Made by a program: the position numbers and the translations under genes
Notes under the pieces: model-generated
Told to the model about the DNA's origin: nothing
The model's input: the letters and a program-made list of their open reading frames with translations, nothing else
Database searches by the model: none
Shown here: piece by piece, positions 8,248 through 43,530 of the stretch
Layout: the number at the start of each line of letters is the position of its first letter
Numbering within the stretch: the first letter of the stretch is position 1
Sequence record: KY703222
DNA: 64,000 bases
Source: Escherichia phage phiC120
Strand: one strand, 5' to 3'

Positions 8248-8284
8248 ATTATTTTCCTCGGTTATTTTATTATCCAACGAGAGC

Positions 8285-8313
8285 ATTATACTCTGCTCTC
8301 AAGAGTCTGTACA
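8285..8313 (-). promoter_or_regulatory. Early-type promoter (TGTACA-N17-TATAAT), copy 1 of a duplicated 55-bp cassette
   Basis: Near-identical 55-bp block at 8262..8316 and 38572..38625; palindrome GAGAGCA...GCTCTC flanks the -10. Confidence 0.5.
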
Positions 8314-9506: not shown

Positions 9507-9685
9507 GTCTTAATTTCCTTCGCAATTGAACAGAAGATACCACGGTCACAAAGCATTTCACCAATTTCTGGATATTTGATTGAACGGTACCAAACATCCA
9601 GGCTTGAAACTTTGGTTATCTGTACTGCATTACCGTTGACCGAATAGTACTGGTCAACCTTAATTTCTTTATCTTCAATTGTCAT
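9503..9685 (-). CDS. Hypothetical protein (start at internal Met)
   Basis: ORF 9503..9724; MTIEDKEIK start preceded by GAGGAA SD and an early-type promoter. Confidence 0.45.
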   Translation of the reverse strand: MTIEDKEIKVDQYYSVNGNAVQITKVSSLDVWYRSIKYPEIGEMLCDRGIFCSIAKEIKT

Positions 9686-9714
9686 TTTATTTTCCTCTAT
9701 AGTAGATGGTGTTA

Positions 9715-9743
9715 ATCTTAACATATCTATCGAGGATGTAAAC
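9715..9743 (-). promoter_or_regulatory. Early-type promoter (GTTTAC -35) with imperfect anti-SD arm
   Basis: GTTTAC-N17-TAAGAT; spacer ATCCTCGATAG is complementary (9 of 11) to the downstream CTATAGAGGAA SD region. Confidence 0.45.
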
Positions 9744-13072: not shown

Positions 13073-13542
13073 TTTAAACTCTTTCTAAGCTGCTTTTTGA
13101 ATGAAGCTATTAATTGTGTTTTAGTATCAGATTCATTATATTCAAATCCTCTTTGAAGCATCTCGGACATCATTTCCTCTTTACCTAGTCTTGAGAACTC
13201 TTTAGTTTTGTCTGGAACAAAATTAGGATGGATATTATTATCAGAATAATCTTGTTTCAAATAAGCAAGAAGAGATTCAAGCCATTCGAGGTAGTCGACA
13301 TCACGACCTTTAAGACCAGAACGGTTGAACTTATGCTTCATTTGGCCTTCTGCTGCGTTGCACAGATTACAGAGTAATCCACGAACTCTACCGGCTTTTG
13401 GCCCGTTTAACTCGTGGTCGTGGTCAAGATGGTTACCTTGAACATCAGGGTCTAATTCACGGTGGCAAATAGGACACTTACCGTTCTGTGCATCATAAAA
13501 TTTTTGTTTTTCTTCTTTATATTTTGCGCCTGATAATAACAT
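13069..13542 (-). CDS. 49: Endonuclease VII (Holliday junction resolvase) gp49
   Basis: 157 aa; zinc-binding CPICHRELD...HLDHDHEL...CNLCN as in T4 endo VII. Confidence 0.9.
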   Translation of the reverse strand: MLLSGAKYKEEKQKFYDAQNGKCPICHRELDPDVQGNHLDHDHELNGPKAGRVRGLLCNLCNAAEGQMKHKFNRSGLKGRDVDYLEWLESLLAYLKQDYSDNNIHPNFVPDKTKEFSRLGKEEMMSEMLQRGFEYNESDTKTQLIASFKKQLRKSLK

Positions 13543-13548
13543 GATAAA

Positions 13549-13571
13549 CCCTTACCTTAAATAGATAAGGG
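13549..13571 (-). promoter_or_regulatory. RBS-sequestering hairpin upstream of gene 49
   Basis: Minus-strand arms CCCUUAUC / GGUAAGGG (8 bp with one G-U); the 3' arm holds the AAGG Shine-Dalgarno. Confidence 0.55.
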
Positions 13572-19212: not shown

Positions 19213-19740
19213 TTATGCGTGAACCGTCTTTAAACGTTCTTCAAATTTCCGAAGAGTACTAATACGTTCTGCTTTCTGTTTTGTATAGTTTGCAATACGT
19301 TCTGAAGTGAGAGCGTATCGTTCGTTTACTGATTCTTTCATGAAGTCAGGGATTTCACGAGAAGCTTTAATTTCATCAAACTTATCGAGTACTGCCTGGT
19401 CTTCAGCAATTAAATTTTCGTACATCTCGATATCTTTCTTGATGAAGTCGATATCTTCCTGGGTTACTTTGGATAAACGAGATGCTTTATCCTTTTTGTA
19501 CTGCTCGTTAGTTTCACGAGACCAGAATAATGTACGTTTTTTGTTAGTGTTTTTGTAGACTTCCACAATTCCAACTGAATCGATGATAACAATCCAATTC
19601 CAGCGAGATTTGAAAATCTGACCTCCGTCCACGGTAATCTCGTTACCATAAGCAACGTCATTAAAGAACTTGCTTTGTGCTTCAGATTTAAATTTACCGT
19701 CGTTATAATTTACCAGGTTGAAAATATCTTTAGCGTTCAT
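19213..19740 (-). CDS. Hypothetical protein
   Basis: 175-aa ORF with early-type promoter at 19768..19796. Confidence 0.5.
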   Translation of the reverse strand: MNAKDIFNLVNYNDGKFKSEAQSKFFNDVAYGNEITVDGGQIFKSRWNWIVIIDSVGIVEVYKNTNKKRTLFWSRETNEQYKKDKASRLSKVTQEDIDFIKKDIEMYENLIAEDQAVLDKFDEIKASREIPDFMKESVNERYALTSERIANYTKQKAERISTLRKFEERLKTVHA

Positions 19741-19767
19741 GTTTTACCTCCAGTAGTTGATAGGTCT

Positions 19768-19796
19768 ATAATAACATAACCATAGACCTTGTAAAC
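19768..19796 (-). promoter_or_regulatory. Early-type promoter GTTTAC-N17-TATTAT with palindrome AGGTCTAT / ATAGACCT
   Basis: Upstream of gene 19213..19740. Confidence 0.55.
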
Positions 19797-19798
19797 AA

Positions 19799-20074
19799 CT
19801 AAAAGAAACTTTTTTCGGTATTTTTTCCACTGAACCAAACAGACTTCGGGATTTTTTGTAATTTTTCAGATTTAAGTTTCTCTTCCTGTTCTTTCTTATA
19901 TACACTCTTGTCGTACTGGAGCATCTCTATGGCATTCTTTTGCAAACGATCTAAGGTAATTAAGGCTTTAGTTTTTCCTTTCAAGGAAGAGTCCTGGCGA
20001 ACCTCCTCGCTATATTGTTCTGTTGCACTAATCATACGATGGGCATATAATTCACGACTGGCTTGGATATTCAT
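19799..20074 (-). CDS. Hypothetical protein
   Basis: 91-aa ORF. Confidence 0.4.
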   Translation of the reverse strand: MNIQASRELYAHRMISATEQYSEEVRQDSSLKGKTKALITLDRLQKNAIEMLQYDKSVYKKEQEEKLKSEKLQKIPKSVWFSGKNTEKSFF

Positions 20075-23469: not shown

Positions 23470-23773
23470 TTAAAGTTTCAACAAAATTCACCAAATCATT
23501 CAGACAAGCATCAACCTGTTTTTCATAAAAGTCTTCGTTATCATTTACTGCATGATAAGCTACATCATTCAAATCTGAATCGGCTTCACGTAAGTTACGG
23601 ATAAGTTCCATCAATTTATTAGCTTGTTCACGGGTCATTTTACCATACTCGTTTCAATAAGATTCACTATGCCGTTTACCATGTTATAAGTAAACATCGG
23701 ATAATTGTATTGTACTACAATATAAGCGATAAGCAAAAGTTTCATTTTGTTCTCCGTTCGTTTTGGTAGGACT

Positions 23774-23803
23774 ACTATAACATAGTCCTACCAAGATGTA
23801 AAC
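23774..23803 (-). promoter_or_regulatory. Early-type promoter GTTTAC-N18-TATAGT inside a 10-bp palindrome
   Basis: GGTAGGACTA-ctataaca-TAGTCCTACC. Confidence 0.5.
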
Positions 23804-24036: not shown

Positions 24037-24196
24037 ACATTTGCAATTCAGTGTGCGTATCAGCCATCTTTTTCATTGCCTTATTGATATCGATATCACC
24101 GTCTTCACACCCATGGGCATTTTCCCAATCGGATACAGCGTTAGCGTACTCTTCAATCAAAAACATTAACTTAGAAATTTTTTCTTTACGTGACAT
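24017..24196 (-). CDS. Hypothetical protein (start at internal Met)
   Basis: ORF 24017..24235; MSRKEKISKL start with GAGGAG SD. Confidence 0.45.
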   Translation of the reverse strand: MSRKEKISKLMFLIEEYANAVSDWENAHGCEDGDIDINKAMKKMADTHTELQMYVNEIM

Positions 24197-24223
24197 AACG
24201 TTCTCCTCTAGTAAGTAAGGTCT

Positions 24224-24252
24224 ACTATAACACAACCTGAGGAGAAGTAAAC
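24224..24252 (-). promoter_or_regulatory. Early-type promoter (GTTTAC-N17-TATAGT) with anti-SD arm
   Basis: 8-bp inverted repeat TTCTCCTC (24201..24208) / GAGGAGAA (24239..24246) links the spacer to the SD of the 24196 gene. Confidence 0.55.
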
Positions 24253-24262
24253 TGATAGATGC

Positions 24263-24291
24263 AAAAAAGCCCCAACCTTTCGGAAGGGGCT
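24263..24291 (-). terminator. Intrinsic terminator after rI
   Basis: Minus strand AGCCCCUUCCGAAAGGUUGGGGCU followed by UUUUUU. Confidence 0.7.
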
Positions 24292-27388: not shown

Positions 27389-27847
27389 CTAGATTTTAAT
27401 CACTGCTTTAGAAGCTTTTCCTGGTAGTCGTTTATTGTTAATAATAGCCATTCTACATTGAAGAGTCTTCATTTTGAATGCCGGATTTTCGCGACAAACT
27501 GTAAGGCCTAACCAAAGATTTCCATCAGTTATTTCTAAACGGCCTGGGCGGTATTCGACACCTTCGACAAAATCTTCATCAACATCTGGACGTGCCGGCA
27601 TTGATAAAAATTCTGCAACTTCTTTAACGTGATTTTTTACTTTACGAAATAATTCAAAAACGTAATTCTCATCTATTTCTCTCTGGATGGCACGATCTAA
27701 GAGATGTTGAGAATACTTGATATGAAAGCCTGGTAGTCCAAGAGACTTTGCAGCATCTTTTATACCGGCATTGATTTGACGAAACTCCGTTTCAAAGATT
27801 CGACGGAGTTTATTGCGACGGATAAAAACTTCCGAATTGATAGTCAT
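27389..27847 (-). CDS. regB: Endoribonuclease RegB
   Basis: 152 aa; MTINSEVFIRRNKLRR...YSQHLLDRAIQREIDENYVFELF...LQCRMAIINNKRLPGKASKAVIKI matches T4 RegB. Confidence 0.85.
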   Translation of the reverse strand: MTINSEVFIRRNKLRRIFETEFRQINAGIKDAAKSLGLPGFHIKYSQHLLDRAIQREIDENYVFELFRKVKNHVKEVAEFLSMPARPDVDEDFVEGVEYRPGRLEITDGNLWLGLTVCRENPAFKMKTLQCRMAIINNKRLPGKASKAVIKI

Positions 27848-27875
27848 TTTTATTTCTCCTCTAGTTGACAGGTCT

Positions 27876-27904
27876 ATAGTAACACAACTAGAGGAGAAGT
27901 AAAC
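27876..27904 (-). promoter_or_regulatory. Early-type promoter (GTTTAC -35, TACTAT -10) for regB with anti-SD arm in the spacer
   Basis: Minus strand GTTTAC-N17-TACTAT; 12-bp perfect inverted repeat 27856..27867 / 27885..27896 pairs the spacer with the regB SD GAGGAG. Confidence 0.6.
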
Positions 27905-27908
27905 TACT

Positions 27909-28124
27909 TTATTGATAAAATGGAGTTAAAGTCCAAGATTCTTTAGATACCATATCGGCGAAATGTCTCATCTCTTCGATTTGGCGACGACGCTGGTCAG
28001 CATAATCTTCTTCGCCTTCTTCCTTACAATCTTCAAGGTCTTCTTCAAGATACTTTAAGTATTCACTACAAATTTTGTTGACCTTTTCCTGGAAGTCCAA
28101 TAACCCAGTAATAGTAGAAGCCAT
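27909..28124 (-). CDS. Hypothetical acidic protein (vs.3 position)
   Basis: 71-aa ORF. Confidence 0.45.
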   Translation of the reverse strand: MASTITGLLDFQEKVNKICSEYLKYLEEDLEDCKEEGEEDYADQRRRQIEEMRHFADMVSKESWTLTPFYQ

Positions 28125-31259: not shown

Positions 31260-31673
31260 TTAGTAAATTGATTTACCATAGTATTTGTACCAAGTGGGAC
31301 GTTGAGCAATTTTTTCATCTAAGCGTGCTTGACTTATCGCAATGGACGCTTCGGACGGGACATAATTATTACGAAATTCTACAGGAATGTCGGAAATATC
31401 CTGGACTGTCGTGTCCTTGATTTTGAAACCACGTTTCAAACATTCAGCTATTAGCTCGATTTGACGTAAACGTAAAAATTCGAGTTTGTCGTAAAAGAAT
31501 GTTACGTGGCCCGTGCCTAAAATAAATGTTGGAGAGATTTTAAAATCTTTTACACGTTTACCATTTTGAACATGTTTACGGACTGCACCGAATACACGAG
31601 GTAATTCACGATACTCAGCCATAAGATGTTGGTCGGTCAGTTCAGAAACAAGTGTTAAATTGATACGAGTCAT
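31260..31673 (-). CDS. denV: Endonuclease V (pyrimidine-dimer DNA glycosylase) DenV
   Basis: [34 protein letters not shown]...[10 protein letters not shown] matches T4 endo V; start at internal Met of ORF 31260..31685. Confidence 0.92.
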
Positions 31674-31700: not shown

Positions 31701-31730
31701 ATAGTATCAAAACCCTTGGAGGAAGTAAAC
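31701..31730 (-). promoter_or_regulatory. Early-type promoter for denV with anti-SD arm in the spacer
   Basis: GTTTAC -35 at 31725..31730; 10-bp perfect inverted repeat 31677..31686 / 31715..31724 pairs the spacer with the denV SD GGAGG. Confidence 0.6.
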
Positions 31731-32500: not shown

Positions 32501-32524
32501 TACCTCCTACGTTTATAGGAGGTA
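32501..32524 (-). promoter_or_regulatory. RBS-sequestering hairpin upstream of lysozyme gene e
   Basis: Perfect 9-bp inverted repeat TACCTCCTA / TAGGAGGTA; the SD AGGAGG is in the 3' arm 4 nt from the ATG; loop contains a late-promoter-like TATAAACG. Confidence 0.7.
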
Positions 32525-34698: not shown

Positions 34699-34726
34699 AA
34701 TATTCTCCTCATGTTTTAATAGGACT

Positions 34727-34756
34727 ACTATAACATAGTCCTATAATTGTGTAAAC
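34727..34756 (-). promoter_or_regulatory. Early-type promoter GTTTAC-N18-TATAGT inside palindrome ATAGGACTA / TAGTCCTAT
   Basis: Upstream of gene 34393..34698. Confidence 0.5.
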
Positions 34757-35993: not shown

Positions 35994-36020
35994 TGTAGAC
36001 TCCATTTAATTTGATAGGAC

Positions 36021-36050
36021 TACTATAACATAGCCCTATCTTGTTGTAAA
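36021..36050 (-). promoter_or_regulatory. Early-type promoter GTTTAC-N18-TATAGT
   Basis: Upstream of gene 35754..35993; box GATAGGACTACTATAACATAGCCCTATC. Confidence 0.5.
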
Positions 36051-38549: not shown

Positions 38550-38591
38550 ATTATTACCTTTCAATTGGTGGTTTTATTATCCAACGAGAGC

Positions 38592-38620
38592 ATTATACTC
38601 TGCTCTCAAGAGTTTGTAAA
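38592..38620 (-). promoter_or_regulatory. Early-type promoter, copy 2 of the duplicated cassette
   Basis: Same sequence as at 8285..8313, upstream of the 37956..38549 gene. Confidence 0.5.
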
Positions 38621-41870: not shown

Positions 41871-41947
<77 letters not shown>

Positions 41948-41953
41948 AATATA

Positions 41954-42027
41954 TGACCCAGACCAGATTCGAACTGGTAACCTTTCCCTTATGAGGGGAC
42001 TGCTGCTAACCGTTGAGCTACAGGGCC
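41954..42027 (-). tRNA. tRNA-like gene with CAU anticodon (Met or Ile2), non-canonical stems
   Basis: Minus strand GGCCCTG...ACCAG-TTCGAAT-CTGGT-CTGGGTC-A; anticodon loop CUCAUAA; one U-U mismatch in the acceptor stem and an irregular D-arm. Confidence 0.6.
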
Positions 42028-43462: not shown

Positions 43463-43500
43463 TTTATTTCTCCATTTACTCGTTTTGTTTTGATAGGACT

Positions 43501-43530
43501 ACTATAACATAGTCCTATCGGCATGTAAAC
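43501..43530 (-). promoter_or_regulatory. Early-type promoter GTTTAC-N18-TATAGT inside palindrome ATAGGACTA / TAGTCCTAT
   Basis: Upstream of gene 43277..43462. Confidence 0.5.

Follow-up and report, generated by a model that had tools for sequence, protein, structure and literature searches.

The 64,000-nt stretch of Escherichia phage phiC120 analysed here (sequence record KY703222; the window below means this whole stretch) carries, beside capsid and terminase genes, genes of the T4 type, namely rI, tk, vs, regB, denV, e, rIIA, rIIB and one for an asiA-like anti-sigma factor, and the gene order rI-tk-vs-regB...denV-e is the same as in T4. Over the 1 kb surrounding regB the identity is 100% with Escherichia phage Av-05 and 96-97% with many T4 relatives of the RB69-like (Mosigvirus-type) kind, and judged from its sequence the window is part of an RB69-like T4 relative and not of T4. 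The subject of this study is the early promoters of regB and denV, and of two small genes referred to as 9685 and 24196, at which one arm of an inverted repeat lies within promoter DNA and the other contains the Shine-Dalgarno (SD) sequence of the gene. We think it fairly probable that the regB and denV sites are promoter-embedded anti-SD switches, by which these genes would be silent on read-through RNA and translated from their own early transcript. This reading is based on the layout of the sites, the predicted folds, the compensatory changes among related phages and where the arm lies with respect to the consensus transcription start.

All sites lie on the minus strand of the window (Table 1). 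At regB, GTTTAC is followed by TT, CTCCTCTAGTTG (27896-27885), TGT, TACTAT, AGACCTGT, CAACTAGAGGAG (27867-27856), AAATAAAA and ATG (27847), the promoter spacer between the two hexamers being TTCTCCTCTAGTTGTGT (N17). A sequence-only reading of this DNA had described a perfect 12-bp repeat between GTTTAC and the -10, with its partner forming the regB ribosome-binding site (RBS); the sequence confirms it, and a repeat search extends the arms to 19 nt each (95% complementary, one mismatch) around a 17-nt loop that contains the -10. The regB leader GGAGAAAUAAA is A-rich and differs from the RegB cleavage consensus GGAGRAYARAA at positions 7-8. The early promoter of T4 regB has been reported to be active (PMC3014915). 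There is no terminator between the stop codon of the upstream vs.3-like open reading frame (ORF) and the regB -35, and read-through is therefore expected. At denV the arms form 10 perfect base pairs in the same layout as at regB, and the 10-bp repeat proposed there earlier was recovered with coordinates and arrangement unchanged.

Hairpin energies were compared with those of 200 dinucleotide shuffles per site. The regB hairpin (-22.6 kcal/mol, z -5.2) was equalled by 0/200 shuffles and the denV hairpin (-19.2 kcal/mol, z -3.6) by 1/200, and both are at least as stable as the hairpins of genes e (-16.6 kcal/mol, z -5.6, 0/200) and 49 (-13.9 kcal/mol, z -3.5, 0/200) of the same window, which had been recognised in the sequence-only reading, were both found where it placed them and served as positive controls. 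At the 9685 gene, where an imperfect version had been expected, an interrupted stem was found (TCCTC-GATAGAT / ATCTA...GAGGA, with GAGGA as the SD in the 3' arm), of moderate strength (-11.5 kcal/mol, z -3.1, 0/200). At the 24196 gene, for which the same layout had been claimed, the 8-bp arms (TTCTCCTC/GAGGAGAA) are present, but their stem is a weak member and not above chance (-14.0 kcal/mol, z -0.65, 43/200 shuffles as good). In addition, a promoter scan gave, on the minus strand, 19 strong early promoters of the GTTTAC type that have a gene downstream, and each promoter segment was paired with each SD segment. The cognate promoter/SD duplex ranks 1/19 both ways for regB and for denV, with 0/2000 spacer shuffles as good, and the corresponding counts are 24/2000 for the 24252 promoter and 31/2000 for the 9743 promoter. 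Moreover, when the 128 candidate gene starts of the two strands of the window are ordered by the strength of the upstream-arm/SD duplex, regB and denV take ranks 1 and 2. The complementarity at regB and denV is beyond chance, that at 9685 is moderate, and that at 24196, taken alone, is not above chance.

For each site the RNA was folded in a long form, which begins 60 nt ahead of the -35 and runs to +30 of the gene, and in a short form beginning at the 7th nt past the -10; all pairing probabilities given here come from such predicted folds. The SD core has a mean probability of being unpaired of 0.00 in the long form at all four sites, and in the short form of 0.57 at regB, 0.41 at denV, 0.62 at 24196 and 0.58 at 9685, a change in SD accessibility that is absent at most other early promoters of the window. 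The proposal that read-through RNA buries the SD, and that RNA from the proximal promoter lacks the 5' arm, thus agrees with the folding of both forms at all four sites, the start being a predicted one: consensus -35/-10 geometry places it between the arms, 6-8 nt past the -10, in each case. A terminator scan found no intrinsic terminator on the way from the upstream early promoters to regB or to denV. The 24252 promoter, which is 30/36 identical to the regB promoter (cassettes 24194-24252 and 27845-27904, minus strand), has a terminator-like hairpin directly upstream, so that read-through at the 24196 site would be limited.

Table 1. Coordinates of the promoter and hairpin parts and of other features in the window
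Feature	Position	Strand	Remarks
regB -35, GTTTAC	27899-27904	minus	same hexamer in T4 and all orthologues
regB 5' arm (anti-SD), TTTACTTCTCCTCTAGTTG	27885-27903	minus	overlaps -35 and occupies promoter spacer; repeat search and minimum free energy (MFE) helix
regB -10, TACTAT	27876-27881	minus	in hairpin loop
regB predicted transcription start	27869-27871	minus	6-8 nt past -10, between arms; sigma-70 geometry
regB 3' arm, CAACTAGAGGAGAAATAAA	27849-27867	minus	holds SD GGAG (27856-27859)
regB coding sequence	27389-27847	minus	152 aa; 77% identity to T4 RegB
Stop codon of upstream vs.3-like ORF	27909-27911	minus	4 nt ahead of regB -35
denV -35, GTTTAC	31725-31730	minus	
denV 5' arm (anti-SD), TTCCTCCAAG	31715-31724	minus	first bases of spacer, directly past GTTTAC
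denV -10, TACTAT	31701-31706	minus	in loop
denV 3' arm, CTTGGAGGAA	31677-31686	minus	contains SD GGAGG
denV coding sequence	31260-31673	minus	137 aa
9685 gene (60 aa), promoter and hairpin	9693-9743	minus	-35 9738-9743; 5' arm 9725-9736; -10 9715-9720; 3' arm 9693-9707
24196 gene (59 aa), promoter and arms	24201-24252	minus	-35 24247-24252; 5' arm 24239-24246; -10 24224-24229; 3' arm 24201-24208
Intrinsic terminator-like hairpin with T-run	24263-24290	minus	directly upstream of 24252 promoter
Gene e SD-masking hairpin	32501-32524	minus	late-promoter type; positive control
Gene 49 SD-masking hairpin	13549-13571	minus	with TATAAATA late promoter; positive control
Second-class palindromes	43491-43520, 36012-36041, 34718-34745, 23762-23795, 19761-19790, 38579-38612, 8272-8305	minus	-10 in loop, SD not included
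tRNA genes	41874-41947, 41954-42027	minus	Rfam

The regB and denV hairpins were also considered as intrinsic terminators and as RNase III sites, and both were rejected: the SD-bearing 3' arms are followed by an A-rich tract and not by a U-tract, with the terminator scan negative at the sites, and most of the orthologous stems are just 9-15 bp. An Rfam search of the window matched two tRNAs alone and no known RNA family at the hairpins.

Covariation across related phages, which had been named as a check on the sequence-only reading, came out in its favour, since across about 45 distinct upstream regions of regB and denV the stems change and the pairing is kept. Viral contigs yielded 18 distinct regB upstream regions; the spacer contains an anti-SD arm in 16 of these, and their stems have at least 9 different sequences. 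The stem is CUCUAGUUG/CAACUAGAG in the window and CUCUUGACUG/CAGUUAAGAG with two G.U pairs in T4, where the site reads cTGTTTAC-TTTTCCTCTTGACTGTGG-TATAAT-TTTTCTAT-CAGTTAAGAGGAGAA and forms 15 pairs including these two; the stems of five other sequences (L108, L110, L117, L125 and L127) are each different, and further variants of the 5' arm are CUCUUUAUG, CUCCUUUUAGU, CUCCUGUAG and CUCCUGUAAG. The arm AUCCUCAUUUG pairs with an SD that is itself GAGGA, and in L125 the SD GAGGA goes with the arm AUCCUC. Cognate regB arms have a mean duplex energy of -18.4 kcal/mol, against -12.2 kcal/mol for swaps between phages (permutation 0/20000). With the arms registered on the SD pair, double-sided changes occur at 13/16 pairs of the regB stem, and the covariation score is 0.320, compared with 0.145 +/- 0.02 after shuffling (0/500) and 0.07-0.11 when the partner is slid. 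A plain MAFFT alignment of the regB leaders put the stems out of register and was rejected, the arms being anchored on the SD pair instead; because a register taken from each sequence's own duplex favours structure, the permutation of cognate and non-cognate arms is given too.

In the denV sample, almost all of 28 distinct T4-like upstream regions have an anti-SD arm inside the promoter, which is of the spacer type in the window, T4, L027 and L045 and of the -10/+1 type in L023, L029, L030, L040, L043 and L051. In one such moved arm, TATGATGUCUUCC pairs with GGAGGACAUCAUG via a G.U pair and overlaps the -10 and the first bases beyond it. The arm position was examined with the SD partner allowed anywhere in the 90 nt upstream, and a duplex of -10 kcal/mol or better was obtained at 47 sites: the 5' arm is wholly upstream of the predicted start at 46 of them, inside -35 to +1 at 41 and downstream at none (0), and the -10-type arms end at -2 to +1 of the predicted start. 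The read-through model, unlike other models, predicts such a migration of the arm, bounded by the start of transcription. Furthermore, 9685 orthologues in another lineage have a different, stronger stem (UCUCCUCACGUGU/ACACAUGAGGAGA) in the same position, and a search for 24196 orthologues gave three near-identical copies only. In a comparison of strands, the helices contain 29 G.U pairs and 4 A.C single mismatches when read on the mRNA strand, which leans to pairing on that strand.

Some variants of these arms were observed in addition. An arm over the -10 that ends at -2 to +1, with the 3' arm reaching over the AUG, is seen at denV in L023, L029, L030, L037, L039, L040, L042, L043, L046 and L051, and likewise at regB of L128 and at T4 modB (13130-13186), a promoter hexamer doubling in all of them as part of an RNA helix. 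The denV homologues of four jumbo-phage contigs of 345-378 kb (L041, L044, L048 and L049) have GGGTTGAC-loop-GTCAGCCC, a T-run and TATAAT upstream; in this element, a terminator like the promoter stem-loop cassettes (PeSL) discussed below, the -35 of the promoter that follows is part of the stem, and there is no anti-SD arm.

A scan of T4 in three genome segments (1-100,000 and 119,000-168,903), covering the minus-strand early regions, found a promoter-embedded anti-SD arm at motB.2, modB (arm over the -10), nrdC.8, regB, denV, alt.-3, alc, ndd.4 and 30.8, and weaker versions at e.8 and imm.1, roughly 9-11 of about 40 early promoters in total. The alt.-3 and alc genes have an almost identical promoter/anti-SD/SD cassette (123032-123093 and 136278-136336), and this duplication, together with that of the regB and 24252 promoters, suggests that whole switch modules may be copied or mobile. 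In T4 and the window together, the upstream ORF ends at or inside the promoter with no terminator in 10/10 of the strongest cases and at 20/46 other promoters (Fisher p = 0.0008), which places the strong arms at sites of expected read-through, and the upstream ORFs of regB and denV end 1-4 nt ahead of the -35. As for ndd.4 itself, its RefSeq start in T4 (NC_000866; L144; 166749-166764) is the ATG inside ATGGAGG; this motif is more likely the SD for an in-frame ATG 15 nt downstream (GGAGGAACAGAAAATG), and the ndd.4 start is probably misannotated.

A published T4 proteome time course (0, 1, 3, 5, 8, 12, 20 and 30 min; PMC9697503 Table S3) allows the protein products to be compared with their neighbours. 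RegB reaches about 6e7 in label-free quantification (LFQ) by 5 min and then stays on a plateau, while Vs.3 and Vs.4, encoded upstream, and Vs.1 and Vs, encoded downstream, rise 5- to 9-fold until 20-30 min (PMC9697503). Similarly, ModB and MotB.2 are flat from 3 min, with ModA, MotB.1 and DexA.2 still rising, and NrdC.8 is flat from 1-3 min (PMC9697503). All of the T4 hairpin genes looked up (6/6) belong to the early RNA / early protein class. These curves fit a brief pulse of translation while the region stays transcribed and translated; they do not separate the hairpin from self-cleavage by RegB.

We propose the following mechanism. The 5' arm would be encoded within the gene's own sigma-70-type early promoter, in the spacer or, in some lineages, over -10/+1, and the 3' arm would be the RBS of the gene. 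When a polymerase started upstream reads through the promoter, both arms would be present in the RNA, and the stable hairpin made of them (about -19 to -23 kcal/mol at regB and denV) would hide the SD and leave the cistron translationally silent on the read-through mRNA. A start at the gene's own promoter, between the arms, would give an mRNA without the 5' arm and with the SD free (predicted to be partly free). The early promoters of T4 are shut down in the first few minutes after infection; RegB, DenV and proteins like them would therefore be made in an immediate-early burst only, and downstream cistrons could still be expressed from the read-through RNA. We infer where transcription actually starts, that the hairpin forms in vivo and that it blocks translation. 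As a wider and more tentative proposal, which is possible but in our judgement somewhat short of an even chance, about a quarter of the T-even early promoters might be dual-coded, the same 20-30 bp serving as sigma-70 promoter and as anti-SD arm, with translation from the gene's own immediate-early transcript only; this would be a general promoter-gated translation, in which the arm migrates but never past the start.

Several points weigh against the switch. The transcription starts are placed by consensus geometry alone, the hairpin loops are long (17-24 nt), and the 24196 stem is indistinguishable from chance by dinucleotide shuffles. Most pairs being Watson-Crick, the antisense strand gives an equal mean duplex energy. 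An abutting upstream ORF without an arm is found at about 20 further early promoters, so that the device would be gene-specific and not general, and the base of the stem could be opened in part by ribosomes that terminate on the upstream ORF, whose stop codon lies 1-11 nt from the -35. In the T4 proteome, NrdC.9 and NrdC.10, early proteins without hairpins, plateau as well (PMC9697503), and cutting of its own SD by RegB also accounts for the RegB plateau (PMC3014915).

Other explanations were considered. The hairpin might be a nuclease shield or mRNA stabiliser, which hides GGAG from RegB or blocks other RNases and so keeps polycistronic read-through RNA from being cut between the genes, with silencing as a side effect. 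RegB does cut GGAG in SD regions including its own, secondary structure inhibits it, and sixteen RegB-resistant GGAG sites of T4 lie within stable structures (PMC1702504, PMC3014915); the regB SD of the window is likewise GGAG followed by an A-rich tract. However, the hairpin is kept where GGAG is missing (regB of L125, T4 motB.2 and T4 alc all have GAGGA) and at T4 denV, whose GGAG resists RegB in vivo (PMC1702504). Furthermore, a shield needs no 5' arm upstream of the start, the main target of RegB being the primary transcript. As the sole explanation the shield is therefore rather unlikely; it is plausible as an added benefit, and shield and translational roles are not mutually exclusive. 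We regard as unlikely, too, a coupling in which translation of regB and denV on read-through RNA needs ribosomes on the upstream ORF to melt the 5' arm, even though the upstream stop codon is 1-11 nt ahead of the -35 in all strong cases and that in front of T4 alt.-3 lies inside the hairpin loop. A paused ribosome would cover roughly 9-12 nt downstream of the stop codon. A ribosome at the upstream stop would reach the -35 but mostly not the CUCC anti-SD core, leaving a stem of 8-14 bp, and abutting stop codons are also found at promoters without arms (20/46). In addition, T4 RegB, ModB and MotB.2 stop accumulating while their upstream neighbours Vs.3, ModA.2 and DexA.2 continue, which is the opposite of coupling (PMC9697503).

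The palindrome could also act at the DNA level or as a terminator-type PeSL, a mobile module of promoter and stem-loop, for recombination or attenuation, the overlap with the SD being incidental. Such cassettes, in which a stem-loop and an SD go with a strong early promoter, are known in RB49/phi1, PST/T4 and nt-1/KVP40 (PMC2839356, PMC4122927), and promoter-SD cassettes are duplicated here as well, as in the 30/36 identity of the 24252 and regB promoters and the single cassette shared by T4 alt.-3 and alc; moreover, many other early promoters of the window have palindromes around the -10 with the SD outside them. But the published stem-loop is a terminator that lies upstream of or within the promoter and leaves the SD outside (PMC2839356, PMC4122927), whereas here no U-tract follows the 3' arm, which is the SD in every case, also where the 5' arm moves. 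Lineage-specific compensatory changes keep the cognate arms matched, for which the spread of cassettes alone is insufficient, and we hold this explanation to be quite improbable. What would remain is a chance overlap between a pyrimidine-rich spacer start and a purine-rich SD. Several early promoters do begin their spacer with TTTCC or TTCTC, and the 8-bp arm at 24196, no better than shuffles, also matches other SDs; but the regB and denV pairing runs 6-10 bp past the SD core, beats shuffles and non-cognate pairs, and covaries. Chance is thus extremely improbable as a general account: it is already refuted for regB and denV and could apply to the 24196 site only. The proposed promoter-embedded switch is, as a model, well supported in silico.

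Some other observations concern the early promoters of the window more generally. There is a second class of palindromes, in which pairing is between the 3' half of the spacer and the bases transcribed first, with the -10 in the loop and the SD not included (for example ATAGGACTatgtTATAGTAGTCCTAT; energies -13 to -21 kcal/mol). The T4 counterparts of these palindromes are at dmd, mobD.2, motB, ipII, ipIII, ipI and 30.7, and their RNA form would also occur on read-through transcripts only. At the 19796 promoter (19740-19815, minus strand), a predicted helix joins the SD CUGGAGG to UUUCUUUUAGUU, which lies immediately ahead of the -35, and encloses the -10 palindrome, a nested arrangement of two helices on read-through RNA only; the probability of an unpaired SD is 0.09 in the long and 0.13 in the short form, so that it is mostly paired in both. 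An initial transcribed sequence (A)NNCCTATCAACTAC is conserved past many -10 boxes (for example 31700-31686, 27875-27862 and 39773-39759, minus strand), and T4 has a longer ACAACTATCAACTACTGATACGGATTTGGAGAATAAAATG leader at several unrelated genes (promoters 27080, 53943, 55384, 70696, 163673 and 167086); it could be an extended promoter element or a common leader cassette. As to the sequence records, that of Av-05 (KM190144; L001; 120.9 kb) is filed under Vequintavirinae/Avunavirus despite T4-type genes in the matching stretch, and either the classification or the assembly of this record, and also of phiE142, may deserve a look.

If the switch operates as proposed, dual-coded promoters would explain why many early promoters of T-even phages (about 40) are closely spaced without terminators between them, since read-through RNA would be translationally useless for the hairpin-bearing genes. 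Host-takeover proteins such as RegB, Alc, ModB, MotB.2 and DenV would have an automatic translational off-switch after early-promoter silencing, and in addition to promoter shut-off and RegB cleavage, early genes of the T4 type would have a third layer of control, encoded in cis. The model predicts which early proteins come as a brief pulse, and such genes may be poorly expressed when cloned behind vector promoters together with the upstream sequence native to them. Furthermore, a short stretch constrained both as promoter DNA and as RNA arm would be a natural data set on dual constraints, and such elements could be compact parts for synthetic circuits, in which a cistron is insulated from upstream transcription.

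Among known systems, the PeSL resembles the sites described here in its make-up, an intergenic cassette of roughly 60 bp in which a strong early promoter is joined by a stem-loop and an SD, in its location in regions rich in small non-essential genes, and in being duplicable. An early promoter followed by an SD and a start codon in a short intergenic cassette is found here as well, but the PeSL stem-loop is a terminator or attenuator without the SD, with a proposed role in recombinational shuffling, while at regB and denV the 3' arm is the SD, there is no U-tract and no terminator stem-loop excluding the SD is present; a separate upstream terminator occurs at the 24252 site only. RegB autoregulation has the same GGAG in the leader of regB as its target, and its effect, too, is to limit RegB synthesis to the first minutes (PMC3014915). 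It differs in that a trans-acting enzyme cuts an accessible SD, whereas the hairpin would be a structure in cis on read-through RNA only, and the hairpin also occurs at genes whose SD is no RegB site. The closest analogue that uses a sigma-70 promoter is the fold-back inhibition of IS10/IS50 transposase mRNA. In these elements, according to work reportedly done in the Kleckner and Reznikoff laboratories, an outside segment present in read-through RNA pairs with the RBS, and the elements' own sigma-70 transcripts start downstream of it and can be translated. Pairing of the RBS specific to read-through RNA, with the gene's own sigma-70 promoter starting inside the structure, is the feature shared with our sites, as found here in silico. 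IS10 and IS50 differ in being transposable elements with one site each and no temporal programme, whereas here phage genes, regB, denV and small ORFs of a T4-type early operon, are concerned, and we know of no family of promoters with lineage-specific covarying arms for IS10/IS50.

Sequestration of the RBS that is relieved by a nested promoter is well known, always with late promoters, and a 2010 review states that the genes under such control 'are all late genes' (PMC2988022). An early-promoter version was not found described in the searchable literature, older T4 sources lying outside the search so that a prior mention is possible, and it appears to be new. In T4 e, soc, 49 and I-TevI (also I-TevII/III, segB and Aeh1 mobE), the SD or AUG is likewise paired in a long RNA started upstream, and a promoter in or next to the 5' arm gives transcripts that are without the arm and are translated (PMC3014915, PMC2988022); the T4 e hairpin is reported to lower lysozyme synthesis about 100-fold (PMC3014915). 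The SD is in a stable helix of upstream-started RNA at all four sites of the window too, and the earlier suggestion that early promoters mirror the hairpin logic of e and 49 holds in silico, the nested promoters being of the GTTTAC type and the folds in agreement. The e-type promoters are gp55-dependent late promoters (TATAAATA), which delay expression until late, whereas the promoters nested here are sigma-70 early promoters (GTTTAC-N17/18-TAnnnT) with the arm in the spacer or over the -10, and their T4 counterparts are classed as early RNA / early protein, not as late genes. The predicted outcome is the opposite of that at e, expression being very early only, and the late-gene hairpin logic would be reversed to permit translation in the first minutes alone.

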